A DNA stretch of 64,000 nucleotides from an uncultured Bacilli bacterium (GTDB taxonomy: Bacteria; Bacillota_I; Bacilli_A; RF39; UBA660), in the NCBI GenBank assembly GCA_934101185.1, contig CAKOQD010000001.1:25681-89680 (forward strand), written 5' to 3'. Under the pieces are notes generated by a model. It was not told the DNA's origin and made no database searches. It saw only the letters and a program-made list of their open reading frames with translations. This document shows positions 2,223 through 53,423 of this stretch, piece by piece. The translations under genes were made by a program, and so were the position numbers. Positions within the stretch are counted from its first letter, which is position 1. Each line of letters begins with the position of its first letter.

Positions 2223-2349
2223 AACTTACTCATTATACCCTATCAATTTTAAAAAACCTACTAAAAAAACTCCATTATTAATAGAGTTTTCCAACATTTT
2301 CGAACAAGACTACTTATAACTCGTACCACTAAGAAGCAATAATTCCATT

Positions 2350-2769: not shown

Positions 2770-2933
2770 TACAACACCTCATAAATATTATACCATTAAA
2801 ACAATATTTTTTTGTTGATTTTTAATAATAACTTTTCATATTATAGTATAAAAAATTAAACATTATAAAACAAGAAACAATACTAAACATATACATATTA
2901 TTAAATATAACTATTTTGAAGGGAGAAAATATA

Positions 2934-12064: not shown

Positions 12065-12065
12065 A

Positions 12066-12617: not shown

Positions 12618-12667
12618 ACAAACACCTCTAGTATAAATATAACATTTTTTTACAAAAAAATAAAGAA

Positions 12668-12693
12668 AAAATCCCTAGATAACTAGAGATTTT
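12668..12693 (-). terminator. intrinsic terminator after the 695-aa adhesin gene
   Basis: 11-bp stem (AAAATCCCTAG / CTAGAGATTTT, one mismatch) with a 4-nt loop, followed by a T-run on the minus strand. Confidence 0.5.
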
Positions 12694-12696
12694 TAA

Positions 12697-14784: not shown

Positions 14785-14799
14785 ATCAATAAACCTCCC

Positions 14800-15348
14800 C
14801 TATTTAATATTTTCATAAAATTTCTTGAATTTAATATTAAAATCTCTAACTTCACTATCAGTCCAATATGTATTAACATCAGTATTTCCAACTACTAAAG
14901 ATGTTTCATTATCATGATTCATAATTACACCATCTTTGAAGAAAAACATATACGGTACAAGAAATTCATCATCACCATTCTTATCTTTATACAATCTGTT
15001 TTCCAATAAAGTAACAAGTTTATTATAACTATCACTCTTATTATCCATATCATTCTTAATATCAACATAATAAACCTTAGCACCATTATCTAAAGAAGCA
15101 TCATTAACTACTTTAGCATACTCCTTACACCAAGAATTATCACTATAACAAAAGAACACTATTCCACTTTTTTTATCATTTAACATATCAAATACATCAG
15201 ATAAACTACTATAAGAAAAATTATTAATTTTAGAAACATTATACTCTTTACTAAACTTAAATGAATCCTTAAAAGATATAAATCCTATTACTCCAAGTAA
15301 TAAAACTATTATTAAAACCAAAACTATTATTTTATTTTTCTTTTTCAT
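14800..15348 (-). CDS. membrane-anchored thioredoxin-fold-like protein with WCKEY motif
   Basis: TM helix plus 'IVFFCYSDNSWCKEYAKVV'. It is a paralog of 12066-12617 and lies immediately upstream of an adhesin gene. Confidence 0.5.
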   Translation of the reverse strand: MKKKNKIIVLVLIIVLLLGVIGFISFKDSFKFSKEYNVSKINNFSYSSLSDVFDMLNDKKSGIVFFCYSDNSWCKEYAKVVNDASLDNGAKVYYVDIKNDMDNKSDSYNKLVTLLENRLYKDKNGDDEFLVPYMFFFKDGVIMNHDNETSLVVGNTDVNTYWTDSEVRDFNIKFKKFYENIK

Positions 15349-15948: not shown

Positions 15949-18603
15949 CTAAGCACCAGCTCCAAGAAGGACTGCACGAGCAGAGTTGCTAGCGTTCGCG
16001 CCACCTTCGCCGCGGTAGAAGTTGAAGGCGCCGGCGTTAGCACCATCAAAGTAGTAACCGCCGCGCACAACCCAAGGGTAGTTAGAGAACACGAAGCTGG
16101 CGTTATCTTCATACCAGTTAGCTGTTCCACCTGTAGGAGCCATTTCTTTTGTTGCATCTCCTAATTTTCCTCTTGTATATTCTGTCCCACTTGTTCCGTA
16201 ACTATATTTGTCATAATACTTAGCAGTAGGGAATGCGTATGTTCCTGTTAATGATGTGCCATCATATAAAATTCCTGTAAATGCTGAATTATATGATGAT
16301 ACATGTCCACTCATTTGTTGTCCATTTGGATATACCATATTACCCATCATATATTCATATGCTCCACCACTCATGTCATATACTCCATATACATTTCCTG
16401 TAGTACTTGCACTTTGTCCTAATGCTGTTGTATATGAATTACATGTTGCACCATTTGATGTAGATCCTTCACTTTGTGGTCCACATCCTGTTGTATATGT
16501 ATTTGCACTATTTATTGCTACTTCTTTATTTATTCCATATTTACTATGTGACAAGTATACTACTGCTCCCCATTCTATATTCTTCATCATATGAGCTTCA
16601 TCAGTTGTTGCAAATCCATATTGGTTTCCTGATTCATTCATCTTTTGGATTCCATTAAAGAATGTTCCTACTTGTGCTCCTCTCCATGATGTTACATTGG
16701 GTAATATTCTCGGTCTTATTGTTTGTAAGTTACATCCTGAACCTACTGCTACATTTTTTGATACTGTACAACTAGTATCACTTGATACTTCAAACTTACC
16801 TACCCAGATTCCTGTTAATTCTTCATTTTTTTCTCTTACGTTGTTATCATTCTTATCCCACCAGAATGCTGGATGAGTATATGTAGAAGTTCCTGCTTTT
16901 AATCCTCCATTTATACTATCAGTACATGTTTCACTTGTACTACTAGTCCCTGTTACTGCATCAGTACACTTTATTGTACCAGTACTTGCTGTACTACTTT
17001 CAAACTTTATTTGTATTTCTTCTGGTGTATTTGTATTTAAATAAGTATAAGTATACCTTGGTACCCATACCCACATAGTATTAATACCATCCATTGGTAT
17101 CTCAGTACCAGCCTCTGCATTAAGTAAATCACTACGAGTACCAGCACTAACCATCTTATACTCATCAACCTTAGTAATAGTATTAGAAGCACTAACTATC
17201 TTATAAACACTAGTACAAGAAGTATCAGATCCATTAGGACACACATACTTACCAACTAAACTACTAGATATTGCACTACTAGTAGGACTAACCAAATCAT
17301 ACTTATTAGTACTAGTATTATAATTAATACCACTTCCAACTTTAGTACTATAAACAGTAGATGTTGTCTCACCACTTGCAGTCCAATTCTGACCAGATGT
17401 ACCACCAGCAGTAGCACTATCAGTATAAGTTACATGAGAATTACTAGGATAAGTAAAAGTATCCAAAACACCATTATCATTATTTTTATTGACACTACTA
17501 TCTTTTGCATACTTAACAGTAATTAAATAAACATCTCCAACTGCAGCAGTGTCTGAATAAGTATTACTATTGGTACCACTTATAGCATTAGCAACAGTAG
17601 TAGCACTACCACCATTCTTTGCAACTGTAACAGTCAATTTATCATAACTTGCCTCACTAGATACAGTAGCTTTAAATCCAAAAGTACCAGCAGTATTAAT
17701 ATTAACAGTTATTTTTGACATACTATTAGCACTATTAATATTATAACCACCACTTGTAAAAGAAGTATAAGTCTTATACTGATTAGAAGTACCAGAAATA
17801 GAAACCGTCTTATTACTTGTAACATCTTCCTTTTTAATATTCTCATCAACAGTCACAGCATTAGCCCACATCTTTTTATCATAATCATACCATTTATTAT
17901 TACTATCAATATTATTTACATCTGCTTTCTTCCATACATCCTTAGTGCTATCATAATAAACTGGTATCATATTACTAGATAATACTGGTTCATTTGCACC
18001 ACTATTATCTAAATTACCTACAATTTCACTAAAATACTGCTCAGCCTCAAGCTTCAACTTTAAAAATACTTGTTGTTCAGATATCTCATCTAAATTAGCA
18101 TCTTCACTAATCCATAATCTTAATTTATATGTGTCTTTTTTACCTGTTCTTAATTCTTTTTCATTTAATAAATCATCTAATTCTGACAATGTAAGTGGTC
18201 CAATTTCTTTACCATTTACCTCTAAACCTATCTTAATTAATCCTTTATCTAACAAAGTTCCAGTATAAGACGCTTTACTTGCCTCATCATCTATTAATAA
18301 AACTTTATACATTGCATTAGCACTACCAGTATTCTCTACCGTAAAACTATAAACATCTTCCTGAAGCAGTCCATCAACATCAGACATAGAACTAAGTCCT
18401 AAATCTATACCAGTTGATGGTTCAGTAAGAACAACTTCTAAACTACCAAGTTTAACTATTTGATTGTTTGAATCAGTAGTAGTCCCTGAAAATATCGCAT
18501 AAGACTGACCTACTAAAATAAGACAAAGCCCAATCAAACCTACACCAAATAATATAACTGATAATTTTGTTTTTCTATTCAAACTTAAAAATCTATCAAT
18601 CAT
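15949..18603 (-). CDS. secreted protein with TasA-type N-terminus, central beta-rich insert and C-terminal FGE-sulfatase/C-type-lectin-like domain carrying VR1 (DGR target-like)
   Basis: The FGE-like blocks are 'GIWVGKFEVS', 'HMMKNIEWGAVVYLSHS', 'GNVYGVYDMSGGAYEYMMGN' and 'PWVVRGG'. The N-terminus has a TM helix followed by 'GQSYAIFSG...LGSLEVVL'. The likely start is ATG at 18603 after GAGGAT; the track start at 18630 is a TTG. Confidence 0.8.
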   Translation of the reverse strand: MIDRFLSLNRKTKLSVILFGVGLIGLCLILVGQSYAIFSGTTTDSNNQIVKLGSLEVVLTEPSTGIDLGLSSMSDVDGLLQEDVYSFTVENTGSANAMYKVLLIDDEASKASYTGTLLDKGLIKIGLEVNGKEIGPLTLSELDDLLNEKELRTGKKDTYKLRLWISEDANLDEISEQQVFLKLKLEAEQYFSEIVGNLDNSGANEPVLSSNMIPVYYDSTKDVWKKADVNNIDSNNKWYDYDKKMWANAVTVDENIKKEDVTSNKTVSISGTSNQYKTYTSFTSGGYNINSANSMSKITVNINTAGTFGFKATVSSEASYDKLTVTVAKNGGSATTVANAISGTNSNTYSDTAAVGDVYLITVKYAKDSSVNKNNDNGVLDTFTYPSNSHVTYTDSATAGGTSGQNWTASGETTSTVYSTKVGSGINYNTSTNKYDLVSPTSSAISSSLVGKYVCPNGSDTSCTSVYKIVSASNTITKVDEYKMVSAGTRSDLLNAEAGTEIPMDGINTMWVWVPRYTYTYLNTNTPEEIQIKFESSTASTGTIKCTDAVTGTSSTSETCTDSINGGLKAGTSTYTHPAFWWDKNDNNVREKNEELTGIWVGKFEVSSDTSCTVSKNVAVGSGCNLQTIRPRILPNVTSWRGAQVGTFFNGIQKMNESGNQYGFATTDEAHMMKNIEWGAVVYLSHSKYGINKEVAINSANTYTTGCGPQSEGSTSNGATCNSYTTALGQSASTTGNVYGVYDMSGGAYEYMMGNMVYPNGQQMSGHVSSYNSAFTGILYDGTSLTGTYAFPTAKYYDKYSYGTSGTEYTRGKLGDATKEMAPTGGTANWYEDNASFVFSNYPWVVRGGYYFDGANAGAFNFYRGEGGANASNSARAVLLGAGA
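15952..16119 (-). other. DGR-type variable region VR1 (3' end of 15949-18603)
   Basis: The patch is about 55-60% G+C by eye. It encodes NWYEDNASFVFSNYPWVVRGGYYFDGANAGAFNFYRGEGGANASNSARAVLLGAGA. Its differences from VR3 follow an NNC-codon pattern (see findings). Confidence 0.7.
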
Positions 18604-18702
18604 AATATCATCCTCTATCGTTACAATCAATACTATTATCTAATATATATGATACCACATTTAATAATTCAAAACAAGAAAAAAAGACAAAGTATTAAAA
18701 CT

Positions 18703-24367: not shown

Positions 24368-24991
24368 CTAAATCACTTTTAATATTTCCTTTAAATATAA
24401 TAATATTGCAAAATCAGAAAAATCAGAAGTTACTCTTTTTCTTTTTGATATTATAACCGGATCAAATGTCCCTTTCCTATCTCTTGGCATATCTATTGTT
24501 ATTTCTCCTGAACTTGTTTTTATTTTCTTTCCTTTTGATGAATGTCCATTTTTCTTATTCGTTATTTCTTCTTTTGTTTCTAATGTATACAATCTTTTTA
24601 TCTCTTCAGGCATTTTATTTTTATATGTATCTGCAAAATAAGGAAATGTTTTATCTATTAGTTTAAATAAATCTGGCATTACCTTTACTCCTTGAAAAGT
24701 CAATTGTGCCGCTCTTTTTCCTTTTTCTTCTCCAAGTGTTATATAAAGCACTTTTTCTGTTCCCCTTCTTGATATATTTTTAAATTGTTGCATCCAAAAG
24801 TCAGTATCATAATTTACATCTATACCATATGTTAAAAATCTTCTTTTACCTTCAATCGTTATTCCTATAAAAGTATACATGTCTCTTGTTCTAACCCTTC
24901 CTTCGACTTCAAGTTGTACTGGTGTCTTTATCGTATAAATCACCACATACATCCTATCTAACTCTCTATATTTTAGTTTCTTTAATTCCAT
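24368..24991 (-). pseudogene. scrambled or degenerate IS256-family transposase remnant
   Basis: Residues 1-140 resemble the central DDE region ('GRVRTRDMYTFIGITIEGKRRFLTYGI...FWMQQFKNISRRG'), but the Asp positions are not conserved. They are followed by an N-terminal-type block ('IDMPRDRKGTFDPVIISKRKR'). This order is impossible for an intact gene. The likely start is MELKK at 24991 after GGAGGGAGG. Confidence 0.55.
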
Positions 24992-25010
24992 TTTCTTTTC
25001 CTCCCTCCAT

Positions 25011-25043
25011 AAAAAAAACTTAATCATTTTTTAGATGATTAAG
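25011..25043 (-). terminator. intrinsic terminator after the 25119-27824 gene
   Basis: CTTAATCAT / ATGATTAAG 9-bp stem followed by T8 on the minus strand. One arm is duplicated at 25050-25060. Confidence 0.6.
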
Positions 25044-25118: not shown

Positions 25119-27824
25119 TCAGTCCAGAACACCAAGCACGGCACGAGCAGAGTAGCTAGAGTCCGCGTGACCATCGAATCTGTCGTAGGAGAACGCGCCG
25201 GCTTTAGCACCACTGCCACAGACCCCACCACGGAAGAACCAAGGGGCGGAACGGCTAGGAAAGGCAACGTAATCTCCATACCATGAAGTAAAGTCAGATG
25301 AAACTGGAGCCATTTCTTTCGTTGCATCTCCTAGTTTTCCTCTTGTATATTCTGTATCTCTTGTTCCATAACTATATTTATCATAATATCTCTTACTTGG
25401 GAATGCATATGTCCCTGTAAATGATGTATTATCATTTCCTAAGTATCCAGTAAATGCTGAGTTATATCTACTATCTGTTGAATCACCACTCATTTGTTGT
25501 CCATTACTCCATACCATGTTACCCATCATATATTCAAGTGCTCCACCATTCATGTCATATACTCCATATACATTTCCTGTAGTACTTGCACTTTGTCCTA
25601 ATGTTGTTGTATATGAATTGCATGTTGCACCACTACTTGTTGAACCTGCACTTTGTGGTCCACATCCTGTTGTAAGTGTATTTGCACTATTTATTGCTAC
25701 TTCTTTATTTATTCCATATTTACTATGTGATAAATATGTTACTGCTCCCCATTCCATATTCTTCATCATATGTGTTTCATCAGTTGTTGCAAACCCATAT
25801 TGGTTTCCTGTTGCACTCATCTTTTGTATTCCATTAAAGAATGTTCCTACTTGTGCTCCTGTCCATGATGTTACATTTGGTTTTATTAATGGTCTTATTG
25901 TTTGTAAGTTACATCTTGAACCTACTGCTACATCATTTGATGCTGTACAACTAGTATCGCTTGATACTTCAAACTTACCTACCCAGATTCCTGTTAATTC
26001 TTCTCCGGTTTCTCTTACGTTGTTATCATTCTTATCCCACCAGAATGCTGGATGGGTATAAGTAGAAGTTCCTGCAACTAATCCATTATTTGTTGCATCA
26101 GTACATGTTTCACTTGTACTTGATGTTCCAGTAACATTATCAGTACATTTTATTGTACCAGTACTTTCTGTACCTTTTTCAAACTTAATCTTTATTTCTT
26201 GTGGTGTATTTGTATTTAAATATGTATAAGTATATCTTGGTACCCATACCCACATTGTATTAATTGCATCCATTGATATTTCAGTACCAACTTTTGAATT
26301 AATTAAATCATTACGTGTTACGGTCTTACTTTTATACTCATCAACCTTTGTAATACTACTAGAAGCAGTAACTATTTTATAAGGTGTAGTACAAGACAAA
26401 TCAGAACCAGTAGGACAAACAAACTTACCTACCAAAGAACTAGATACAGAAGACAAACTAATATTTTTAAGATCATATTTACTTGTAGAACTATTATAAG
26501 AAATAGAACTTCCTACTAAAACACCAGTACCACCAGTAATTGCTCCACTAGCAGTCCAATCTTGTCCAGAAGTACCACCAGCAGTAGCACTATCAGTAAA
26601 AGTAACAACACTATTCGCAGGATACGTAAATGTATCTAAAATAGCATTATCATTATAAGTATTACCACTACCATCTTTAGTATATTGAGCAGTTATAACA
26701 TAAACATCTCCAACTGCTGCAGCATCAGAATAAGTTTTACTAACATTATTACCACTTATTGCATTCGCAACAGTAGTAGCACTACCACTATTTTTACTAA
26801 CAGTAACAGTTAATTTATCCCAATTAGCTTCACTTGAAACAGTAGCCTTAAATCCAAAAGTACCAGCAGTCTTAATATTAACAGTTATCTTAGTATAACT
26901 CTTAGCATTATCAATATTATAACCCCCACTAGTAAAAGTAGAAGGAGGAACTGAAGCAATAGTTTTATTAGAAATAGAAACACTCTTATTCTTTGTAATA
27001 TCATCAGCTCTACTTGAAGAAACAACAGTTACTGCATTAGCCCACATCTTGTTATCATAATCATACCATTTATTAGCTTCTTTAGCATTATTACTATCAG
27101 CTTTCTTCCAACTATCACTAGTACTATCATAATAAACTGGTATCATATTTGATGTAAGTTCTGGTGCATTTGCTCCACTTGTATCTAATTTGCCTTCAGT
27201 AGTTTGCTCACTATATAATTGAATCTTATAACTCATTATAGTATTTTTATTTTTAACATTATAACTATTCGGAGTATCATAATCCAACCATAATTTCAAT
27301 TTATAAGAACTACTAGCAGACCTCTCTAATAAACCAGAATCAAGAATTATATTACCATCACTATCAACTTTTACAACTTTAAAATCTTCTCCATCTTTAC
27401 TTATACCAGCTTTAACATATTGAGCAGGAATACAAACATCAGCATTAACCGAAGAATCTCCTACTGTATAAGAATTACCAACAGTACAACTATTAATAAG
27501 AGACAATTTATATTTAGCATTAATACTACCAGTATTCTTTAATGTAAAATCATAAGTAGTACTATCACTAAGAGCCACATCATCCGGAGTAGGAATAGCA
27601 TTATTAACACTAATAACTGGAGTAGTATTTTCTAATGTTATTACCAAACTACCTGCACTAATAGTATTAATAGACTGAGTATAAACACTTTTAAATATAA
27701 AAGCATAAGATCCTCCGACAAATATAAATAATATAGAAATAATACCCAATAAGAAACTAATCTTAACACCAGGATTATCCTTATATTTTACCTTTAACTT
27801 ATCAAACTTATTAAAAAAATTCAT
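25119..27824 (-). CDS. secreted protein with TasA-type N-terminus, central insert and FGE/C-type-lectin-like C-terminal domain carrying VR2 (DGR target-like)
   Basis: 901 aa; paralog of 15949-18603, sharing 'KWYDYDNKMWANAVTV', 'NTMWVWVPRYTYTYLNTNTP' and 'GNVYGVYDMNGGALEYMMGN'. Confidence 0.8.
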   Translation of the reverse strand: MNFFNKFDKLKVKYKDNPGVKISFLLGIISILFIFVGGSYAFIFKSVYTQSINTISAGSLVITLENTTPVISVNNAIPTPDDVALSDSTTYDFTLKNTGSINAKYKLSLINSCTVGNSYTVGDSSVNADVCIPAQYVKAGISKDGEDFKVVKVDSDGNIILDSGLLERSASSSYKLKLWLDYDTPNSYNVKNKNTIMSYKIQLYSEQTTEGKLDTSGANAPELTSNMIPVYYDSTSDSWKKADSNNAKEANKWYDYDNKMWANAVTVVSSSRADDITKNKSVSISNKTIASVPPSTFTSGGYNIDNAKSYTKITVNIKTAGTFGFKATVSSEANWDKLTVTVSKNSGSATTVANAISGNNVSKTYSDAAAVGDVYVITAQYTKDGSGNTYNDNAILDTFTYPANSVVTFTDSATAGGTSGQDWTASGAITGGTGVLVGSSISYNSSTSKYDLKNISLSSVSSSLVGKFVCPTGSDLSCTTPYKIVTASSSITKVDEYKSKTVTRNDLINSKVGTEISMDAINTMWVWVPRYTYTYLNTNTPQEIKIKFEKGTESTGTIKCTDNVTGTSSTSETCTDATNNGLVAGTSTYTHPAFWWDKNDNNVRETGEELTGIWVGKFEVSSDTSCTASNDVAVGSRCNLQTIRPLIKPNVTSWTGAQVGTFFNGIQKMSATGNQYGFATTDETHMMKNMEWGAVTYLSHSKYGINKEVAINSANTLTTGCGPQSAGSTSSGATCNSYTTTLGQSASTTGNVYGVYDMNGGALEYMMGNMVWSNGQQMSGDSTDSRYNSAFTGYLGNDNTSFTGTYAFPSKRYYDKYSYGTRDTEYTRGKLGDATKEMAPVSSDFTSWYGDYVAFPSRSAPWFFRGGVCGSGAKAGAFSYDRFDGHADSSYSARAVLGVLD
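25122..25283 (-). other. DGR-type variable region VR2 (3' end of 25119-27824)
   Basis: GC-rich patch encoding WYGDYVAFPSRSAPWFFRGGVCGSGAKAGAFSYDRFDGHADSSYSARAVLGVLD. It keeps the same invariant skeleton (W, PW, RGG, GA.AGAF, SARAV) as VR1 and VR3. Confidence 0.65.
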
Positions 27825-42019: not shown

Positions 42020-42352
42020 CTTATAATGATAAGCCATCGTCTTTTTCTTTGTCTTTCCTTGTATAATAGAATTCTTCAGCAGATTCTTCCATTTCTTGAT
42101 TAATTTGTTTAACAAATTAAATCCTTTAAATCTTCTTTATTATTTTCTTTTAACTTCAGGATCATATTATTGCTTAAAATATTTTAAACCTAAACCACTA
42201 TGATTAAATAAATGGTCAACTATTGTCTTAATAAATTCTGGTAAATTTTGAAAGACTTTATTTAAGTGATTAATAAGATAAACTGTTTTTTCTTTTAAAT
42301 TTCTATATTAGTTTACTTACAATATTAATCTTAATAAAATTCTTTCTTAACA

Positions 42353-45283: not shown

Positions 45284-46063
45284 CTATTTAGTATTAATAT
45301 TTATATCTCCTACTCCACCATCTATCTCAATAACATTACGACCAGTTCCTAAAACACTATCCTTAACAACATCAGTACCATTAACCTTAACAGAACCAAT
45401 TCCTAAAGACAAATCAAGAGATAAATCTGACATATCATTAAAAAGATTAAGAACAAGCTTACCAACACCACAATCAACCTCACTAGAACCATTAATAAAA
45501 GCATTAATATTGGTATCACCTGCACCCATATCATAATCTAAATTATTAATATTACCATTCTTAATAACAAACTTACCAGCTCCTCCATCAATCGAAGTAT
45601 CATTATAAACAACTAAATCATTAATAACTACATTACCTACTCCAATATCAAATGAAAGATTCTTAGTAACAAGCTTATCAATATTAACACTACCAAAACC
45701 AGCATCAATCAAAACATCATCAAAAACATAAGAAGAAGGAACAATAACAGTAACAACATCTGACATATCAAAACTAAAATGACCCTTTTCTTTTATAGTA
45801 ATCTTATTATTATCATTATTAACACTTATATACTTACTATCAGTAGAAACATCAAAACTATCTCCACTTTTAATCTCTAATCTACTAAACTTAAGAGAAA
45901 CATCCAAATAATTTGAATTCAAAGAAACATTTCTATCATTACTAGTCACAAAAGAATTACCAATCGATAAAACAATATCAATCAAAAAAGAAAATATACT
46001 AAATATTAAAAGAAAAGCAACCCCTATACCAAAATACTTAACTATCCTTTGAGTACTACTCAT
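45284..46063 (-). CDS. LiaG/DUF4097-like beta-helical putative adhesin
   Basis: TM anchor followed by repetitive 'D.G.G.V.I' beta-strand periodicity. It overlaps the LiaF-like gene by 4 nt. Confidence 0.4.
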   Translation of the reverse strand: MSSTQRIVKYFGIGVAFLLIFSIFSFLIDIVLSIGNSFVTSNDRNVSLNSNYLDVSLKFSRLEIKSGDSFDVSTDSKYISVNNDNNKITIKEKGHFSFDMSDVVTVIVPSSYVFDDVLIDAGFGSVNIDKLVTKNLSFDIGVGNVVINDLVVYNDTSIDGGAGKFVIKNGNINNLDYDMGAGDTNINAFINGSSEVDCGVGKLVLNLFNDMSDLSLDLSLGIGSVKVNGTDVVKDSVLGTGRNVIEIDGGVGDININTK

Positions 46064-46737
46064 TTAATCTCTACTCCTCCAAATAAACAAGTAGCATTAA
46101 TATAAATAGTCTTATTCTTTGAATCAAAATCTCTTTCCTTCTTTTCTACTCCTCCAAAAATAGAAGTAGAAACAACCTTAACATTAACATCACTAGGTAC
46201 AATAATAGTAATACCTCCAAAAACACTAAGAGTATTTATAACAACATCATTCTTAATATTACTCTTAAAAATATTACACTTAATACCTCCAAAAACCGCA
46301 GTCATATCACAACCACTAAAATCCTCATCAGAAAAATCCAAATCCTGTCCTGAAAAAGTAGCACAATACTCCTTATTAGAACCTTTCTTATTAAGTTTTT
46401 TAACCTCTTTTCTTACTTTACTAGACACCTTATCCTTAAATATAATAGAAAATCCAATAATAACAAGAATAACAGGTACAATAAGCTTAAACAAAATATC
46501 AAAACCAATAATATCTTGACATCCAAGCAATAAACAAACTCCCACTAATAAACCAATAAAACTACCAGTTTTATCCTCATCACTAAGTAACCCAATAAAG
46601 CAAGGAACAATTATAAAAAGTGTCCACCATCCTGCAAAAAATATATTGATATCAACCAAACCAGTTGCATTAAGTCCTAAAATAAGACCCAAAACAATTA
46701 AAACAATCCCCCATAAAGTATTTGAAATATTCTTCAT
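46060..46737 (-). CDS. LiaF-like cell-wall stress membrane protein (DUF2154-type C-terminus)
   Basis: 4 TM helices ('LWGIVLIVLGLILGL') plus repeated 'FGG(I/V)' C-terminal strands. Confidence 0.45.
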   Translation of the reverse strand: MKNISNTLWGIVLIVLGLILGLNATGLVDINIFFAGWWTLFIIVPCFIGLLSDEDKTGSFIGLLVGVCLLLGCQDIIGFDILFKLIVPVILVIIGFSIIFKDKVSSKVRKEVKKLNKKGSNKEYCATFSGQDLDFSDEDFSGCDMTAVFGGIKCNIFKSNIKNDVVINTLSVFGGITIIVPSDVNVKVVSTSIFGGVEKKERDFDSKNKTIYINATCLFGGVEIK

Positions 46738-46815
46738 CTTATCACCTCTAACTTAATTATACACAATTAAAAATAAATGTCAAATAAAAAAATTCCCATA
46801 ATCAGAAATTTTTAA

Positions 46816-48105
46816 TTACGAAACACCTATAATATAAGGATTATCCAAAGTTCCAGTACCAGAAAGATATTTAACACCATTATCTAAATAGAAAACTGGT
46901 CTAGATGTATGAGAATTAACACTATATCTAAATGCATCTAACGTTCCTGTTGACTTAATACCATTTGCATAATAATGTGAACATCCATTACAATAAACTG
47001 AAATAGTCCATTCATCTGTATCAACACTTGTATCATTATTACTTTGATGTAACCAAGACTTTAGCAACGGATAAGATTTATTTCTCCATGCAGTAGTTTT
47101 TATTCCAACACTACCAAGAGATAACCCAATATCTGAATCATACATTAGCCCAATTTTACTACTAGAAGTACTTGAGCTCAATTCTTTTTTGTAAGCAGCT
47201 TCAAATGTACTACTATAACTCATTACTACAGCATAATTCCAATCAATAATAGATGAATACCAAGAAGTATTCGTACTTAAATAAGGATAAGAAGAAGTAT
47301 TTGTTAAAAAATGCGGACCATTTACATTAGTTCTTATTAAACTAACATCCCAACTAGCAGTGCTATTTGTAGCATACCATAAACTCTTATTCTTCAATTG
47401 CTTATACTTAATAAGCTTTACATGATTAACACTATTTGAATCCTTAAAGACCCCTATAATTCTATACATATATGTATCAGGATTATTAATACAATCACTC
47501 TTGTTATCAGTACCAAAACAAACATAATTATCTGGACTTAAACCAGTATATCTATAACCATCATTTGTAAGACCAGATTGCCATACCATTCTTTTTAAAA
47601 TAATATGTTCTGCTAAATTTTCCTCTGAAACAACAGTAATAGTTTTATTAAGTACATCCTTAGTATAAGGGCTAATAGTCTTAACACTTAACCCAATACT
47701 TTCTTGCTCATTAAACAAAGCACCCTCTCTCAAAGCAAGTTTAAGAGTATAATTTTTTGTAGTCTTTGCTCCACCTGCAATTGTAATATTCATTTTATTA
47801 TCATCAGATATTTTATCATCTACAACTAAACCAAATACAGAAGAATCAATACTAACTTCAAAAACAGTATCCAAATCAGTCTCATTTGAAGAAACATAAT
47901 TATTAAGTACAAGATCAATAATCAATGACTGATCATCTTCTTTTACATACTTATCGTATGAAACATCAGAAGAGTTATACATCTTATCACTAGTTATTTG
48001 AGTACTCTTTGAAACATCAAACTTATACCTAGCACCAGTATATGAAGTTGAGATAGATAAAAATAATATAACTACAATAATCATTAAAAACTTTTTATTC
48101 ATCAA
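46816..48105 (-). CDS. secreted protein with TasA-type N-terminus and C-terminal DUF1566/DUF6273-like domain (AT-rich, not variable)
   Basis: 'STSYTGARYKFDVS' N-terminus, plus 'YVCFGTDNKS...MYRIIGVF', 'IGLMYDSD' and 'SRPVFYLDNGVKYLSGTGTLDNPYIIG'. It is the last gene of the sipW operon. Confidence 0.65.
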   Translation of the reverse strand: MMNKKFLMIIVVILFLSISTSYTGARYKFDVSKSTQITSDKMYNSSDVSYDKYVKEDDQSLIIDLVLNNYVSSNETDLDTVFEVSIDSSVFGLVVDDKISDDNKMNITIAGGAKTTKNYTLKLALREGALFNEQESIGLSVKTISPYTKDVLNKTITVVSEENLAEHIILKRMVWQSGLTNDGYRYTGLSPDNYVCFGTDNKSDCINNPDTYMYRIIGVFKDSNSVNHVKLIKYKQLKNKSLWYATNSTASWDVSLIRTNVNGPHFLTNTSSYPYLSTNTSWYSSIIDWNYAVVMSYSSTFEAAYKKELSSSTSSSKIGLMYDSDIGLSLGSVGIKTTAWRNKSYPLLKSWLHQSNNDTSVDTDEWTISVYCNGCSHYYANGIKSTGTLDAFRYSVNSHTSRPVFYLDNGVKYLSGTGTLDNPYIIGVS

Positions 48106-48114
48106 AACATCTCC

Positions 48115-48612
48115 TTACAACTCACTTTGTTCTACATTTGCTTCTATTTTAACATAATCACTAATATTTTGATAAATATATGATTTATCACTTTCATTCC
48201 ATATAATTTCTAAAACATAATTATCAGTAACTTTAGAACCCGCTGCTAACTGAAATTTGTCACTCCTATTATCAGTAAGAAGTAACTCTTCTCTCTGATT
48301 ATCATCAACTCTATAAAGTTTAAACTCTAAAGGTAAATTATCAACATTAACAAATAAAGAATAATAAAGTGCAATATCATTAACTAAATCATTATTAAAA
48401 TTAGTAACCTGAAAAGGAATTTCAATATTTTTAACTGGACTAACCTTTTCACTAACATCAGTAATTGAAAGATTTAAGATAGGTTTAGCAATATACATTT
48501 TATTACTAAGTTCAATGTTTTCATTATATTTAGAAATACTCGGAGACATAAAAAGCACTAAAAAAAGCATGAAATATATAATTAAAAAATACAAATATTT
48601 TTTCTTTAGCAC
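48115..48612 (-). CDS. small TasA/camelysin-like secreted protein
   Basis: 165 aa with a signal anchor followed by 'SISKYNENIELS...YIAKPILNLS'. It sits within the operon. Confidence 0.4.
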   Translation of the reverse strand: MLKKKYLYFLIIYFMLFLVLFMSPSISKYNENIELSNKMYIAKPILNLSITDVSEKVSPVKNIEIPFQVTNFNNDLVNDIALYYSLFVNVDNLPLEFKLYRVDDNQREELLLTDNRSDKFQLAAGSKVTDNYVLEIIWNESDKSYIYQNISDYVKIEANVEQSEL

Positions 48613-48626
48613 ATTATCCCTCCTAA

Positions 48627-49073
48627 CTATTTTTTACTAGGTATTAAAGCAGTTATAATAAAACCAAATATAAACAGAACTATCCAAAACAACGGTTTAG
48701 ATGTATATCTAACAATACAACTAGTATTTAAAATCAAAACAACTTTACCAACAACATCACTAACACGAATTGGATCATCTAAAGCATTATTATAATCACC
48801 TTTAGTTACTACATTAAGTTCATTAACTCCAACAATTCTATGAGTTATATAATCATCATCATTTTTATATGTTACTATATCATTAACAAAATAAGTATCT
48901 TGTTTCTTAATCAATATTATATCCCCAACCTTAATAGTGGGTTGCATACTTCCAGAAACAACTGTAAACATCTGATAACCAAAAAATGAAATATGTAAGA
49001 TATTTAATAGTTTTATAATTAAAATAAGTATAACTAAAATATAAAAGAAAATACTAAATATTTTTTTTAACAT
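48627..49073 (-). CDS. sipW: signal peptidase I, SipW (archaeal/ER Ser-His) type
   Basis: 'VVSGSMQPTIKVGDIILIKK', 'THRIVG', 'TKGDYNNALD' and a C-terminal TM helix. Confidence 0.8.
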   Translation of the reverse strand: MLKKIFSIFFYILVILILIIKLLNILHISFFGYQMFTVVSGSMQPTIKVGDIILIKKQDTYFVNDIVTYKNDDDYITHRIVGVNELNVVTKGDYNNALDDPIRVSDVVGKVVLILNTSCIVRYTSKPLFWIVLFIFGFIITALIPSKK

Positions 49074-49082
49074 CTTTTAACC

Positions 49083-49649
49083 TCATAAATTTATTAATTC
49101 AGTAACATTTGTATCATACTGAGTACCAACAATTTCAATAGGTACCACCAATTCACTAACATTCATTCCAACATAAGTATCATTATCAATATCATCCACT
49201 ATATACAGCCATTTCCAATATATATTAATATCAATACCATCTATATCATTATGTTTAAGTGTACCTTCTATACCATTACTACTAAGTTCTTTAGTCATCT
49301 CTTTATCAGTATAAAACTTCAAATTATTTGGTGCATTTACAATCCCATTAATTTTAACATTAAACTTAACACCAGTCTCAGTATTAGCATTATTTAATTT
49401 AAGATTAATTACACCACTAGTTCCTGGAGCAATTTTACCATTAGAAAGAGTCGATTCATCATATGTACCATTAATATTTATATTTATAACAGTATTTTTA
49501 TTATCACCAAGAAATGTCCACTTTGCAACATTTAAAAAGCCATAATTTGAAACATTATCAGTATAACTTGCATAAGTCAAAGTATTACCAAAAACTACAA
49601 TACCAATAACTATAAACAAAACAACCATTAATAATCTTTTAACCCTCAT
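49083..49649 (-). CDS. TasA/camelysin-like fibre subunit candidate
   Basis: 'LTYASYTDNVSNYGFLNVAKWTF', 'IAPGTSGVINLKLNN' and 'NIYWKWLY'. It is comparable with B. subtilis TasA 'TWAAFND...', 'KPGDK' and the C-terminal W. Confidence 0.5.
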   Translation of the reverse strand: MRVKRLLMVVLFIVIGIVVFGNTLTYASYTDNVSNYGFLNVAKWTFLGDNKNTVINININGTYDESTLSNGKIAPGTSGVINLKLNNANTETGVKFNVKINGIVNAPNNLKFYTDKEMTKELSSNGIEGTLKHNDIDGIDINIYWKWLYIVDDIDNDTYVGMNVSELVVPIEIVGTQYDTNVTELINL

Positions 49650-50137
49650 TCCTCCATCACCACCTTATTTTTGTTTAAAATAAACTTATCTAAAACAAAG
49701 AATAACAAGAAGAAAATAATTATCAAAAACTTATACTTTAAAAACAAAGTAATAATTAAAAACTTATAAACATACTTTCCAACAACATCATCAATAGATA
49801 TCATTTCATCACATGCACCATTAGCATCACCCTTTGTTATTATTCCATCATCTGCTATAGAAACAATTCTATGAGTAACATAAGAATCATCAACTTTATA
49901 AGTAATGATATCCCCCACTTTATAATTATCATAACTTTTTACAACAATCAAATCATTAATATGCAATTCACTTTCCATACTAGATGATGCAACTTCAAAG
50001 AAATAATACTTATCAAAAAATGAAACAACATCTTTATTAGTCAATCTCTGATACCCAACTATACAAATATATATAATCAATACAATGCATATAAAATAAA
50101 AAGTAAAATCAACTATTTTCCTTAAAAAATTAATCAT
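49646..50137 (-). CDS. sipW: second SipW-type signal peptidase I
   Basis: 'VASSSMESELHINDLIVVKS', 'THRIVS', 'TKGDANGACDE' and a C-terminal TM helix. Confidence 0.7.
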   Translation of the reverse strand: MINFLRKIVDFTFYFICIVLIIYICIVGYQRLTNKDVVSFFDKYYFFEVASSSMESELHINDLIVVKSYDNYKVGDIITYKVDDSYVTHRIVSIADDGIITKGDANGACDEMISIDDVVGKYVYKFLIITLFLKYKFLIIIFFLLFFVLDKFILNKNKVVMEE

Positions 50138-50864
50138 TTATCTGTTCTGCCTTTATATTAATTTTTAATTTGTAATTAGCAACACCACTACTACCAATTG
50201 ACGTATCATTTGAACTATCAAACCATTTCCATTCAAGATAGTATGTGTCATCATTACCACTAAATAAATTAACATCATTTTGATTTAAACTTGTATAATA
50301 AGACCAATCACTAACAATATAATTATTACCATTTAACAAACGATATTTCATATTAATACTATAATCATTTGTTTCTTCAAAAAGCATAGTATATTTAATA
50401 TTAAACCTAGTTTTATTACTAACAACAAATTTATATTTTCCAGTAATTCCCGGTGCAATAATATTAGAATTTTTATAAGTAGAATTCTCAAATATTTTTA
50501 AATCGTTATCAGAACGCCAAGAAATATTATCATCATAAATTTCTATCTCATCACTATACTCTGTTTTTGAATTATTATTGCTAGTATTATCATTATTATC
50601 AAAGTTATTTATTTTACTATTTTCATACTTGCCAACAGATGTACTTGTTTTATTACCACTGACATTATCATCAGAACTAATATTATTATCAGTATCTTGT
50701 TTGTCATTACACTTACAATCATAATCACATTTTATTTCAAAAACATTAACAACATCTTCACAATCATCTTTAGTAAAAAAGCCATTAAAACATATAAAAA
50801 ATAATAACAATAAAATTATAACTATTAAAATCACAATTGTAATCTTATATTTTTTATTACTCAT
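50130..50864 (-). CDS. membrane-anchored protein with Cys cluster, Asn-rich linker and TasA-like C-terminal domain
   Basis: Start MSNKKYK at 50864 after GAGGTG. It has a TM helix, 'CEDVVNVFEIKCDYDCKC', and then 'IAPGITGKYKFVVSN ... YYLEWKWFD'. Confidence 0.45.
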   Translation of the reverse strand: MSNKKYKITIVILIVIILLLLFFICFNGFFTKDDCEDVVNVFEIKCDYDCKCNDKQDTDNNISSDDNVSGNKTSTSVGKYENSKINNFDNNDNTSNNNSKTEYSDEIEIYDDNISWRSDNDLKIFENSTYKNSNIIAPGITGKYKFVVSNKTRFNIKYTMLFEETNDYSINMKYRLLNGNNYIVSDWSYYTSLNQNDVNLFSGNDDTYYLEWKWFDSSNDTSIGSSGVANYKLKINIKAEQIND

Positions 50865-50936
50865 AAATTCACCTCTTATTGTTCCACTAAAGACTACAAA
50901 ACTATAATCTTTAGTGGAAGAATAATCTTCCAACCA

Positions 50937-51497
50937 TTAAGCAATATGTTGTTTAACAACTACATTAACAGGAATTTCTAATGTTCCAGCATTAATTCCA
51001 GTTGCAGTATCTTTAGTATTATTAGCTTCATCATTAGCCCATTCTACTTCAATAGTAACATTTACTTTAGTACCATCAGTAACTTCTGTTAAAGATAAAC
51101 TACCAGTATATGCTCCATTAGAACTAGTTAAAGCATTATCGCCAACTTTTACTGATTTAATTGCTAAACCAGCATCAGTTAAATTAGAAGCATCAATTGA
51201 GATAGAATAATCAATAGCAACTTCTGATCCAGTTGGGTCAATAGTAAGGTTCCCAACAGCAGTACTTCCAGGTGCAACTTTTCCAGAAACTACATTAGCA
51301 TTAGCAGTAACAGTAAATGGAACTTTAACAGAATCAGATAATTCATTAGTACCATCAGTAACTTTAACTGCCCATTTTGCAACACTAACTTCACCTTTTC
51401 CAGAAACTTCAGTCACATAACGTGCAAAAGTAAAACCACCAAAACTTAACAATAATGCCACAACTAATAATAATGTTACTAAATTTCTTTTTTTCAT
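50937..51497 (-). CDS. TasA/camelysin-like fibre subunit candidate (first gene of the operon)
   Basis: 'FGGFTFARYVTEVSGKGEVSVAKWAV', 'VAPGSTAVGNLTI' and 'IEVEWAND'. Its codon usage and operon position suggest it is the major subunit. Confidence 0.55.
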   Translation of the reverse strand: MKKRNLVTLLLVVALLLSFGGFTFARYVTEVSGKGEVSVAKWAVKVTDGTNELSDSVKVPFTVTANANVVSGKVAPGSTAVGNLTIDPTGSEVAIDYSISIDASNLTDAGLAIKSVKVGDNALTSSNGAYTGSLSLTEVTDGTKVNVTIEVEWANDEANNTKDTATGINAGTLEIPVNVVVKQHIA

Positions 51498-51630
51498 AAA
51501 TACTCCTCCTTACAACATATTAGTAGAGTACAAACAATACCCTACTATAATGAATTATATCATATATTGTCGAAAAATGAAACAAAAAATAAATCAATTA
51601 CCAATAACTACAAAAAAATAAACAATAAAA

Positions 51631-51665: not shown

Positions 51666-51742
51666 TGGCGTCCCCGATTGGATTTGAACCAACGACCTAT
51701 TGCTTAGGAGGCAATTGCTCTATCCAGCTGAGCTACGAGGAC
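51666..51742 (-). tRNA. tRNA-Arg (anticodon CCT)
   Basis: Acceptor GTCCTCG/CGGGGAC (one G-U pair), anticodon loop CTCCTAA, T-loop GGTTCAAATCC, encoded CCA. Confidence 0.9.
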
Positions 51743-52233: not shown

Positions 52234-52297
52234 AAATCAACCCACCAAAAAAATTATAACACAAAATAAAAAACCCTACAAGGGTTATTAAACATAA

Positions 52298-52374
52298 TGG
52301 TCGGAGAGACAGGATTTGAACCTGCAACCCCTTGGTCCCAAACCAAGTGCTCTACCAAGTTGAGCCACTCTCCG
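52298..52374 (-). tRNA. tRNA-Pro (anticodon TGG)
   Basis: Acceptor CGGAGAG/CTCTCCG, anticodon loop TTTGGGA, T-loop GGTTCAAATCC, encoded CCA. Confidence 0.9.
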
Positions 52375-52378
52375 ATAA

Positions 52379-52455
52379 TGGCGTCCTGGAAGGGATTCGA
52401 ACCCCTGACCGCCGGCTTAGAAGGCCGATGCTCTATCCAGCTGAGCTACCAGGAC
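52379..52455 (-). tRNA. tRNA-Arg (anticodon TCT)
   Basis: Acceptor GTCCTGG/CCAGGAC, anticodon loop CTTCTAA, T-loop GGTTCGAATCC, encoded CCA. Confidence 0.9.
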
Positions 52456-52499
52456 ATCCATCTGCATTTCATAAATGCTATTTAATTATACAACAAAAC

Positions 52500-53423
52500 T
52501 TAATAAATATCAATATCTTTTTTATCTTTTTCTAAAATTTTAACACCATCAACATTTATTTTAACCTTAGAAACAGAATAATTAGAAAACAAAGAACATA
52601 AAAGAGGCTTAACAACAGTATCAGAAACATTATCAAAAGAATCAGTAAAATCAAGACTAATAACATCATCATCTATATCATAAGAAACTAACTTAACACT
52701 ATCACTAAGCATAGAAATCAAATTATCATGATACAAAAAACTAGATAACTCCTCCACTATTATCTCAAGCTTTTCCCTCTTATCATTAACATACTTAGTA
52801 ACAGGAATCAAATAATAATCATCATTATTCTTAGTATAGTAATAAAGATTAATCCTCTTAATATCCATATTACTACTAAGAGAATAACTCTTATTTATAC
52901 CATAATCATCATACAAAACAGTAGGCAATTTCTTGTTAGTATTAGGAACATATTTAAGAAGTGAGTCTTCAACATATATCTCAACACCAACAACCTCATC
53001 AAAACCAAGCAAAGTATAAAGTAAAGACTCAATCATAGCATCAGACTGTTCACTACTAATATTAAGAAGCTCCTTAGAAAAAACAACCTTTAAAATATCC
53101 CCATCCAACTTAACAGAAATAAGCTTAGTATCTCTAGGTAATATAGGCTTAAAATAACTAGGTAACAAAGAATTCTTATTATTATCAATAATCATAATAT
53201 CAATAACATTAGAAACCTTCTCCTCCAAAGTATCCCCATCAAGAAACACACTAGTCATAGAAACATAAGAATCATCATTAATAGTATATAAAGAAACTTT
53301 ATAAGAAGAATTAGAATAAGACTCTTTATCAACACCAGTCTTACTAAAACTAAAAAGTACAAAAGCAATAAACACAATCAAAGTAGTAAAAAATATCTTA
53401 TTAATAGACCTTTTCCAAAACAT
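52500..53423 (-). CDS. GerM-like sporulation/germination lipoprotein-type protein (GerMN repeats)
   Basis: TM/signal anchor followed by two similar halves of about 130 aa ('VKLDGDILKVVFSKELL', 'YDIDDDVISLDFTDSF'). It sits next to the gerE-like gene. The start is probably ATG at 53423. Confidence 0.45.
   Translation of the reverse strand: MFWKRSINKIFFTTLIVFIAFVLFSFSKTGVDKESYSNSSYKVSLYTINDDSYVSMTSVFLDGDTLEEKVSNVIDIMIIDNNKNSLLPSYFKPILPRDTKLISVKLDGDILKVVFSKELLNISSEQSDAMIESLLYTLLGFDEVVGVEIYVEDSLLKYVPNTNKKLPTVLYDDYGINKSYSLSSNMDIKRINLYYYTKNNDDYYLIPVTKYVNDKREKLEIIVEELSSFLYHDNLISMLSDSVKLVSYDIDDDVISLDFTDSFDNVSDTVVKPLLCSLFSNYSVSKVKINVDGVKILEKDKKDIDIY

Follow-up and report, generated by a model that had tools for sequence, protein, structure and literature searches.

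The 64-kb window analyzed here (the whole 64,000-nucleotide stretch of contig CAKOQD010000001.1, from an uncultured Bacilli bacterium) contains, at 46816-51497 on the minus strand, seven co-directional open reading frames (ORFs) that very probably form a SipW/TasA-type extracellular fiber operon. Four large proteins with similar N-terminal junctions (p15949, p25119, p28013 and p54486) are encoded elsewhere in the window, and the N-terminal module of three of them (p15949, p25119 and p28013) can be placed, with equally high confidence, in the TasA/camelysin superfamily. In the favored explanation, these large proteins are cut by SipW, join the fiber of the operon and present interchangeable hypervariable binding heads; taken as a whole, this explanation stands at about even chances. 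The ORF coordinates agree exactly with the seven partly overlapping genes of an earlier prediction made from the sequence (referred to below as the original prediction), and the overlapping pairs meet at 49646-49649 and 50130-50137.

The probable SipW/TasA-type operon

The genes of the operon are listed below in the order of transcription (p50937, p50130, p49646, p49083, p48627, p48115, p46816) together with the flanking promoters. A slash marks the position of each junction, and ER stands for endoplasmic reticulum.

51544..51573, minus strand: promoter-like site of the first gene of the operon, upstream of p50937
50937..51497, minus strand: p50937, 186 aa; first gene; signal peptide, 'GGFTFA/RYV' junction and beta-sandwich domain
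50130..50933, minus strand: p50130, 267 aa as listed, with a likely true start at the ATG at 50864; membrane segment, linker and TasA-like C-domain
49646..50137, minus strand: signal peptidase 1 (p49646), 163 aa; TIGR02228 77.3 bits; Pfam S24/S26; ER/archaeal (SipW) type
49083..49649, minus strand: p49083, 188 aa; second TasA-like subunit, 'TLTYA/SYT' junction
48627..49073, minus strand: signal peptidase 2 (p48627), 148 aa; TIGR02228 81.3 bits; ER/archaeal (SipW) type
48115..48612, minus strand: p48115, 165 aa; TasA-like subunit with profile matches to both the operon family and the N-domain family of the large proteins
46816..48105, minus strand: p46816, 429 aa; last gene; 'SYTGA/RYKF' junction, weakly TasA-like N-part and DUF6273-like C-domain
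46756-46783, minus strand: perfect consensus promoter TTGACA-16-TATAAT, a 12/12 site; start of a LiaF-like unit

In a scan of the window, the total number of promoter-like sites is at chance level and only the 12/12 site stands out. Because this consensus promoter opens the next transcription unit, it bounds the end of the operon.

Both peptidases exceed the cut-off (51.85 bits) of NCBIfam TIGR02228, the model for archaeal/ER-type signal peptidase I (S26B), and share 43% identity. The p49646 protein contains the motifs SSSM (S53), THR (H89) and GDANGACD, and p48627 contains SGSM (S42), THR (H78) and GDYNNALDD; each thus has the Ser/His/Asp residues and lacks a catalytic Lys. The catalytic roles of these Ser and His residues, and of the Asp, are presumed from known work on SipW, with the His at the box-D position. 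Against NF046067, the equivalog model for Bacillus SipW with a cut-off of 190 bits, p49646 and p48627 fall below the threshold with 46.3 and 65.5 bits, respectively. The two SipW-type (Ser-His) peptidases of the original prediction are therefore right as to type, though they are not orthologues of Bacillus SipW. Related loci (79 in total) were found with the single protein p15949 as the query, and in one of them, L068, the peptidase of a TasA-like operon is closer to p48627 (34% identity, 5e-11) than to p49646 (26% identity, 5e-4). A specialization of one peptidase for the large proteins was considered and dropped, as this small difference in similarity was the sole evidence for it and is too weak.

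The four small proteins of the operon have no direct Pfam or NCBIfam match, and Peptidase_M73 (PF12389) matches neither a protein of the window nor any of 39 members of the p50937 family. Among the 41 homologues of p50937, none is named and none has a Pfam match; across their alignment, the A-K-W, A-P and W positions are invariant and a C-terminal Q is shared. The A-K-W, APG, W and Q positions are kept in p49083, which can be aligned across the whole p50937 family and is similar to p50937 itself by BLASTP (2e-9). More distant relationships emerge from profile-profile comparisons built from the orthologues in three related loci (L001, L004 and L006). The p48115 family matches the p50937/p49083 family over 159 columns (hhalign 97.8%, E 7e-13), and the C-domain of p50130 (aa 148-263) matches that same family at 95.5% (E 1.6e-8) with no signal peptide in the match. 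Judged by these profiles, the four small proteins form one superfamily, which ties together the four TasA-like proteins that had been proposed. The motifs quoted for them in the original prediction are less uniform. The strict '(T/S)(Y/F)A' junction is present only in p50937 (TFARY) and p49083 (TYASY) and is missing from p48115 (SISKY), p50130 and the larger p46816 (YTGARY); 'APG' is found in three of the four small proteins and 'W.W' in two (p49083 and p50130). The p50130 protein differs in architecture, as its N-terminal membrane segment lacks a cleavage-type junction and is followed by a Cys-rich and Asn/Asp-rich linker.

An AlphaFold2 model of p50937 has a predicted local distance difference test (pLDDT) score of 72.7, with residues 22-37 around the junction predicted to be disordered (pLDDT < 50). 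The top five Protein Data Bank (PDB) matches of this model in Foldseek include the TasA-like archaeal bundling pilin AbpA (7ueg), the cannula-like Hyper2 tube (9bab), the TasA fiber (8aur) and the cannula protein CanA (9h8b), with weak E values (3-7e-3) and probabilities of 0.99-1.0. These structural relatives bear on a reading in which there is no fiber at all, and the small proteins would be secreted camelysin-type proteases or spore-coat-associated proteins, as in older TasA/CalY annotations, merely matured by both peptidases. Such a reading is highly improbable. It draws on the Pfam family name Peptidase_M73 (camelysin), on PDB entry 5of1, which calls TasA 'spore coat-associated protein N', and on a Spore_II_R sporulation gene on the related contig L006. 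The structures of TasA, AbpA, CanA and related proteins show donor-strand fibers, however, and the presence of several paralogous subunits together with a lectin-headed one fits a pilus-like logic. In addition, a metalloprotease motif was noticed neither in the small proteins nor in their conserved columns, although no systematic search for one was made.

The lectin-headed subunit is p46816. Over its last 245 residues, this protein shares homology with the C-terminal domain of p28013 (1e-7) and with an internal domain of p54486 (4e-7), and its N-terminal part matches the p48115 family (hhalign 81%). The identity of the shared domain as DUF6273 follows from p28013, which scores 21 bits (sub-threshold), and from precomputed PF19789 matches in most of its orthologues. 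DUF6273 is a C-type-lectin-like target domain of diversity-generating retroelements (DGRs), in which the variable region occupies the C-terminal end (PMC11792537, PMC10743442). Because published models describe DUF6273 as C-type-lectin-like, the lectin-like C-terminal domain that had been proposed for the larger operon protein is a reasonable description, with the homology coming from the present comparisons and the fold from the literature. The DUF6273-like domains of p46816 and p54486 use native AT-rich codons, and p46816 has no GC-rich patch. As this is the normal codon usage of the genome, both domains look static, and a variable role for them was rejected. The p46816 protein is thus a candidate static head or tip subunit.

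The arrangement of the operon recurs in four related metagenomic contexts, two of which likewise have two peptidases. The order peptidase, TasA-like protein, p50130-like protein, p48115-like protein and larger protein is found in L001, L004 and L006, all of which encode p50130 orthologues; one peptidase gene is present in the operon of L001 and two are present in those of L004 and L006. The last operon gene encodes a p46816 orthologue of 432 aa in L001 (BLASTP 55% identity; 4e-105 with a hidden Markov model (HMM) of the C-terminal domain) and one of 634 aa in L006, the latter assigned by position and N-terminal alignment only. In L004, the orthologue (451 aa) is followed by the second peptidase. 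Overall, an ER-type peptidase gene lies beside TasA-like genes in the window and in L001, L004, L006, L007, L008 and L068; in L007 and L008 the neighbors are p50937-family genes. On the higher-GC, Clostridia-like contig of L007 (1-12620), the p50937-family genes and the SipW-type peptidase adjoin a sortase pilus cluster with two sortases and SpaA/LPXTG proteins, as well as several further TasA-like genes.

N-terminal modules and variable heads of the large proteins

The four large proteins are encoded as follows.

15949..18630, minus strand: p15949, 893 aa; N-module at 18001-18603, 'VGQSYA/IFSG' junction, middle region and weakly FGE-like C-domain
25119..27824, minus strand: p25119, 901 aa; paralogue of p15949 (64% identity), 'VGGSYA/FIF' junction
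28013..29494, minus strand: p28013, 493 aa; TasA-type N-module, 'AVGTYA/FDK' junction and DUF6273 domain
54486..56975, minus strand: p54486, 829 aa; long hydrophobic segment, 'VTNSYA/KWSS' junction, static DUF6273-like domain (aa 93-366) and weakly FGE-like domain

All four junctions are present as quoted in the original prediction. Among the 30 ORFs of the window with an N-terminal hydrophobic segment, seven have the motif [ST][YFW]A directly after it, and six of these seven are operon or large proteins named here. Other secreted proteins of the window, the SpaA pilins and p56982, have ordinary signal peptides without the junction. The similarity of p15949, p25119 and p28013 extends over a whole N-domain of approximately 190 aa: the p28013 domain matches that of p15949 at 8.5e-4, and an HMM of the N-domain matches p28013 at 2e-28. 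Within 31 orthologues of p28013, the junction is the most conserved part of the protein (entropy 0.0 bits). In p54486 and many relatives, the hydrophobic segment and an '(N)TSYAKW' junction are kept without a beta-sandwich.

A search of a 1.84-billion-protein library with the N-domain profile returned up to 8,149 clusters at E <= 1e-3 and up to 4,494 at E <= 1e-10, and both counts are upper bounds, since the profile extended beyond the N-domain. Lengths among the top 150 matches range from 179 to 3,535 aa, and in 148 of them the match starts within the first 50 residues. Pfam domains that accompany the module in its relatives are DUF6273, BspA-type LRR, Laminin_G_3 (ConA-like), F5/8 type C (discoidin), Flg_new (Listeria-Bacteroides repeat) and ALK_LTK_GRD, which is the repertoire expected of adhesins. 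Peptidase_M73 is matched (E < 0.01) in 14 of the 82 top relatives scanned; P0183, a stand-alone member of the N-domain family of 200 aa, exceeds the gathering cut-off of 22.5 bits with a score of 27.1. When the operon and large proteins were scanned directly with Pfam and NCBIfam, only the peptidases and the sub-threshold DUF6273 emerged, PDB sequence searches with p50937-family, N-domain and C-terminal 393-aa queries returned no matches, and no source searched gives a functional name to any member of these families.

The AlphaFold2 model of the p15949 N-domain (pLDDT 77.4) is disordered (pLDDT < 50) at residues 32-44, directly after the junction. Its best PDB match in Foldseek is AbpA, followed by the donor-strand (chaperone-usher) pilins FimA, FimG, PapG and CfaB. 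The same structural relatives have been described for the TasA superfamily (PMC12518558). As for the expectation that modeling would reveal a TasA fold in the N-terminal regions of the large proteins, the best match of the p15949 model is AbpA, with a weak E value, and p54486 has no beta-sandwich. At the sequence level, the N-domain HMM gives a match to Bacillus subtilis TasA over aa 4-62 (p = 3e-7), for which the TasA sequence was verified with 8AUR, and the resemblance to the TasA junction GGGTWA/AF is at the level of the motif only. To relate the modules to the operon, two intermediates are available. The p48115 family matches the large-protein N-domain family over 138 columns of the mature domain (hhalign 93.5%, E 2e-7), and the C-domain of p50130 matches it at 94.5% (E 8e-8) with no signal peptide in the aligned part. 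The link between the operon and the N-domain rests on these two bridges because a direct p50937 match needs the signal peptide, and it is from p48115 and p50130 as intermediates that a single superfamily is accepted.

At their 3' ends, three of the large genes carry a second type of signature, located in the following regions.

~15952-16119, minus strand: variable region of p15949, GC-rich NNC codon pattern
~25119-25290, minus strand: variable region of p25119, GC-rich NNC codon pattern
~54486-54660, minus strand: variable region of p54486, GC-rich NNC codon pattern
~28085-28207 (aa 430-470), minus strand: shorter GC-rich hypervariable patch of p28013, at the C-terminal end of the DUF6273 domain

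The last 150 nt of p15949, p25119 and p54486 have a GC content of 57-61%, compared with ~31% in the rest of the gene (57% vs 32% in p15949). Over the last 50-55 codons, differences between the three paralogues fall mainly at codon positions 1 and 2, and C is kept at position 3 (AAC/TAC/GCC/AGC/GGC). On sequence grounds, this codon pattern reads as the classical footprint of adenine-directed DGR mutagenesis. In the 31 p28013 orthologues (79-99% identity), the entropy rises to 1.92 bits at aa 441-460, compared with 0.1-0.8 over most of the protein and 0.97 at aa 401-420. The large proteins had been described as bearing variable regions, and that description holds for three by their GC-rich NNC signature and for p28013 by its GC patch and entropy spike. 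The p25119 orthologue of the metagenome-assembled genome (MAG) CAKOIB01 (L010) is 91% identical at nt 1-2516, and the alignment ends before the variable region. The variable 3' end of p25119 is followed after 92 bp by a gene fragment at 24368-25027 (minus strand), which encodes 219 aa of a Mutator-family (IS256-like) transposase.

The C-terminal 400 aa of the p15949-type proteins have no Pfam or PDB sequence match; a homologue in L063 has a weak FGE-sulfatase match in this domain (E 0.047). Two homologues of the C-terminal domain are encoded next to a DGR. The L082 locus contains a complete cassette, with a variable repeat (VR) at 4082-4229, a template repeat (TR) at 4461-4607, adenine-specific mismatches between them, an Avd-like gene and a reverse transcriptase (RT) with the motifs IGNFTSQ and YMDD. 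The complete cassette of L063 has the same layout (adenine-specific TR/VR mismatches, Avd-like gene and RT). The homologues in L082 and L063 are therefore bona fide DGR targets. For a TR or RT in the window or the relatives' loci, only VR-type copies at the 3' ends of ORFs were recovered, apart from the RTs of L082 and L063. The DGR acting on the window proteins would be encoded elsewhere in the genome.

The L063 and L068 loci belong to one MAG (uncultured Clostridium sp. bin.8). The N-terminus of the L063 DGR target has the TasA-type junction 'YYTYA/MFTANVSSG', and a paralogue of this target lies in L068, 5 kb from a TasA-like/SipW operon. The products of that operon are a SipW-type peptidase, a pair of canonical TasA-like proteins ('GATFAWFTATAAG...GNLVIEY') and a third protein, which belongs to the N-domain family. 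One independent MAG thus combines a DGR cassette, a target with a TasA-type junction and a sipW-TasA-like operon.

The variable C-domain also occurs on type IV pilin-type N-termini ('KKGFTLVELLAVI...') in L012, L027, L042, L046, L048, L054, L062, L069, L075 and L080-L083; in L082 this N-terminus matches N_methyl (PF07963) with 31 bits. In L027, from a close relative of the window's organism, the variable-domain gene lies ~80 bp from a divergent PilB/GspE-like ATPase gene (assigned by eye from the N-terminal sequence, not by HMM) and is followed by another pseudopilin gene. Given these fusions, the variable head is mounted repeatedly on filament-forming modules. They also show that the original prediction overstated its case in holding one signal-peptide type to be shared by all DGR-target-like proteins.

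Relatives of p15949 are numerous in some MAGs, with at least 21 loci in CAKOIB01, 10 in CAKOLK01 and 3 in CAKOJO01 (L009-L041), and their conserved 3' halves have 82-91% DNA identity to the window copies. Orthologues of p28013 (window 28013-30837; L090 8649-11491; L091 10001-11485) occupy a fixed position just after ftsA-ftsZ and an unannotated 426-aa gene, and in another lineage the gene lies inside the dcw cluster (mraZ...murG-murB-ftsQ). The ftsA-ftsZ/dcw neighborhood is an odd place for a hypervariable surface protein.

Proposed display on the fiber and its alternatives

We infer SipW cleavage, donor-strand assembly, and base and tip roles in the following model. The two ER-type peptidases would process subunits of the TasA superfamily, and the operon subunits would polymerize by donor-strand complementation, on the pattern of TasA, BsaA and archaeal bundling pili. 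The p50937 protein is the candidate major fiber subunit, and p49083 and p48115 may be minor or adaptor subunits, with p48115 a candidate adaptor since its profile matches both families. The p50130 protein, with a C-terminal acceptor domain behind an apparently uncleaved anchor, would form the membrane-anchored base of the fiber, and p46816 would be a static C-type-lectin-like (DUF6273) head built into the operon. In p15949, p25119 and p28013, the predicted front end comprises a signal segment, a junction of a small residue, an aromatic residue and Ala, a short disordered strand and a TasA/camelysin-type beta-sandwich; in p54486, it would comprise the junction and short strand only. The large proteins would be exported by Sec, cut by a SipW-type enzyme and, via the N-terminal strand, plug into or co-polymerize with the fiber, such that their lectin-like heads may serve as tips diversified by a DGR located elsewhere in the genome. 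Growth may occur at the base, as proposed for BsaA: subunits would be Sec-exported and stay held by the signal peptide while the N-terminal strand released from the preceding subunit enters the groove of the newcomer, and the SipW cut would follow. By the logic of this model, the p54486 class, with a donor strand and no acceptor domain, could only be the first, distal unit, proteins with a full N-domain and a head (p15949, p25119, p28013 and p46816) could start or join a fiber, and p50130, as an acceptor that seems to keep its anchor, would terminate the fiber at the proximal end.

A link between the large proteins and the operon is suggested by the homology of the shared N-module to a family whose first-described members are the known SipW substrates, the DUF6273 subunit of the operon, the conservation of the junction, the L063/L068 MAG and the fusions to filament modules. 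On these grounds, processing of the large proteins by SipW is slightly favored, and their mounting on the fiber of this operon is somewhat doubtful.

Several observations weigh against the proposed display. With respect to processing, the hydrophobic segment of p54486 is long enough for an uncleaved membrane anchor, the Ser/Thr-Tyr-Ala junction also satisfies the general (-3, -1) rule of type I signal peptidases, and a P-type signal peptidase is present in the related genome of L001. In scans of the seven operon proteins and of 23 N-domain sequences, NCBIfam TIGR04088, the SipW-cognate signal peptide model, does not appear among the families listed at E <= 1. With respect to homology, the similarity of the N-domain to B. 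subtilis TasA does not extend past the signal peptide, junction and first strands, and a direct hhalign link between the p50937 and N-domain families (66%, then 94% with a deeper alignment) was discarded, as it drops to 1-3% without the signal peptide. The Foldseek matches of the p50937 and large-protein N-domain models have E values of 1e-3 to 1e-2 and TM-scores of 0.3-0.55. With respect to gene context, the large genes lie 3-30 kb from the operon, and the notion that sipW generally adjoins the genes for variable proteins was rejected, since a SipW-type gene lies within 10 kb in only one of the 79 loci (L068). Finally, neither a TR nor an RT was found in the 64-kb window or in the loci fetched from the nearest MAGs.

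A first alternative is that the large variable proteins are independent of the operon. The TasA-like N-domain would then be an inherited stalk or spacer, the N-terminus would be cut by a housekeeping peptidase or remain as an uncut anchor, and the proteins would act as monomeric, membrane- or wall-associated variable receptors. The scattering of the genes, with 78 of the 79 loci lacking a SipW-type gene within 10 kb, is in agreement with such independence, as are the location of the p28013 orthologues beside ftsA-ftsZ or in the dcw cluster rather than near sipW, the unmatched TIGR04088, a junction that fits a generic Ala-X-Ala-type rule and the lack of any beta-sandwich in p54486. This alternative is nevertheless considered unlikely. 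The junction and the strand that follows it are the most conserved part of the p28013 orthologues, and the junction is kept even in the domain-less p54486 class, whereas the SpaA pilins and p56982 have ordinary signal peptides without it. In addition, the last gene of the operon bears the same type of head, and the module is N-terminal in the ~150 top relatives, as a donor-strand module requires.

The arrangement in L068, where a SipW-type peptidase and stand-alone N-domain proteins share a separate operon, raises a further alternative, in which the large proteins with a full N-domain would form fibers of their own that need SipW-type processing and none of the structural subunits of the operon. 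The N-domain family is nearer to canonical TasA/camelysin than are the small proteins of the operon, and TasA and BsaA are reported to polymerize without other structural subunits (PMC9674648, PMC11580942). However, self-polymerization leaves unexplained both the junction-only p54486 class, which has no acceptor domain, and the presence in the operon of p48115, which matches both families, and of a DUF6273-headed subunit; heads of 300-700 aa on every subunit may also hinder packing. Such fibers are considered distinctly improbable. Extension of the favored explanation, with attachment to the fiber of the operon, leads to a broader proposal: one SipW/TasA-like apparatus in uncultured gut Bacilli might be the common scaffold for dozens of plug-in, lectin-like heads per genome, rewritten in trans by a DGR and attached by a TasA-type donor strand, with the N-module as a general display handle. 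This proposal is speculative and, on balance, rather unlikely to hold in full.

The surroundings of the operon are those of an ordinary chromosome, from a bacterium of ~28% GC, and contain ftsA, ftsZ, leuS, tex, ppdK and sortase/SpaA pilin genes. The nearest genomes are uncultured gut 'Bacilli' MAGs from Hadza samples, with orthologues at ~86-91% nt identity. Directly downstream of the operon, at 45284-46737 (minus strand), are genes for a LiaF-like membrane protein (LiaF-TM, LiaF-like_C) and a 259-aa repeat protein. A tRNA-Arg(CCT) gene lies in 51666-51742 (minus strand), between the promoter region of the operon and an upstream HD-domain-like gene, and genes for tRNA-Pro and tRNA-Arg(TCT) lie 0.6 kb further up, at 52298-52455 (minus strand); the plus-strand ORFs listed at 52297-52535 are artefacts because these tRNA genes lie there. 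On the minus strand (703-1392 and 8348-15348) lie a sortase gene and the genes for two large proteins (1238 and 695 aa) with SpaA domains of the sortase-pilin type, from which it follows that the organism has a second, sortase-type pilus system. Each of the two large SpaA-domain proteins is preceded by a membrane-anchored protein of ~183 aa with a CxxC-like 'FFC...SWC' motif, and these two smaller proteins are homologous to each other (40% identity). In the region 34000-42100, where the genes are on the plus strand, the GC skew changes sign; this region contains genes for an amidase with four LysM repeats, tRNA-Trp and a Fic-domain protein (36581-37183), together with a 1447-aa ORF (37676-42019) with zero Pfam matches. 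In L001, the P-type peptidase gene (178 aa, Peptidase_S26; within 660-4917) lies 9 kb from the TasA-like operon and directly upstream of a gene whose unannotated product, a secreted protein of 1178 aa, contains a long Asn/Asp-rich region.

Comparison with known systems

The separate components of the proposed display are already known: SipW/TasA-type operons from Bacillus, Clostridium perfringens and archaea, DGR-diversified pilus-tip heads from Bacteroides and variable DUF6273 heads from phages. In the biofilm fiber operons of B. subtilis (tapA-sipW-tasA) and B. cereus (sipW-tasA-calY), as in the window, a dedicated ER-type peptidase is encoded with its substrates, and SipW processes TasA, TapA and BsaA (PMC11580942). 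B. subtilis TasA shares with the window proteins a Gly/Ser/Thr-aromatic-Ala junction and is cut after GGGTWA, consistent with the start of 8AUR at A28. Its subunits are beta-sandwiches with N-terminal donor strands, and the accessory TapA also uses strand complementation. Unlike the Bacillus operons, that of the window encodes a pair of peptidases, and its diverged subunits number four or five; the cut-offs of PF12389 and the NCBIfam SipW equivalog are not reached by any of these proteins. One of these subunits has a lectin-like head, and the N-module is reused in large proteins elsewhere in the window, with many paralogues per genome in related MAGs.

The sipW-bsaA-bsaB-bsaC operon of C. perfringens resembles that of the window in its gene order: sipW comes first, genes for two remote TasA homologues follow, and the operon ends with bsaC, for a larger protein whose binding domain is vWA (PMC11580942). 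BsaA requires SipW and forms membrane-anchored donor-strand oligomers (PMC11580942). In contrast, the head in the window is DUF6273/C-type-lectin-like rather than vWA, and no link to variable proteins is described for C. perfringens. Secretion in C. perfringens also depends on type IV pilus genes, and in relatives of the window's organism the variable head is sometimes joined directly to a type IV pilin N-terminus. Genes for TasA-like proteins are frequently found beside a signal peptidase I gene (PMC12518558). Both window models find their best structural matches (7ueg, 9bab and 9h8b) in the archaeal bundling pili (AbpA/AbpX) and cannulae, which are built from single-domain subunits without adhesin heads, and their likeness to the window proteins is at the fold level only (E ~1e-3). 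Among phages, the DUF6273 DGR targets of Faecalibacterium prophages and the tentaclins have a C-terminal variable region (PMC11792537, PMC10743442), a layout identical to that of p28013. These phage proteins are tail or receptor-binding proteins, whereas in the window DUF6273 is found on chromosomal proteins with TasA-type N-modules, with static copies in p46816 and p54486.

Within the literature library searched, no paper mentions both a diversity-generating retroelement and TasA, in keeping with the original prediction, which was aware of no described link between a TasA/SipW system and DGR-diversified subunits. The current view of TasA fibers is that of a structural scaffold for biofilms, composed of one or two small subunits, and the DGR targets of Gram-positive gut bacteria are mostly unplaced 'surface proteins'. 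If the proposed display is true, it would provide a mechanism for presenting DGR-diversified binding proteins in Bacillota, a role for the unannotated N-domain family (up to ~8,000 clusters, an upper bound) and control of the display of a whole hypervariable adhesin repertoire by a single peptidase/fiber operon. It would also offer a simple genetic handle on what these hypervariable proteins bind in the gut.

The closest known parallel is found in the DGR-diversified type V pilus tips of Bacteroides. The tip adhesins BfrT, BthT and BunT combine an N-terminal pilin-type domain, which serves for incorporation by a strand, with a C-terminal C-type-lectin head that contains a DGR variable region, and static and diversified versions of the same head coexist (PMC11601372), as they do in the window. 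The Bacteroides adhesins differ in being lipoprotein precursors processed by an Arg-protease, in a Gram-negative bacterium of another phylum, with an adjacent DGR whose activity has been shown. In the window, the pilin-type module is TasA-like and would be processed by SipW, the DGR lies outside the window, and many paralogous heads are present in related MAGs. On the broader proposal of a common scaffold, TasA-like fibers would be the Gram-positive counterpart of tip-adhesin pili.

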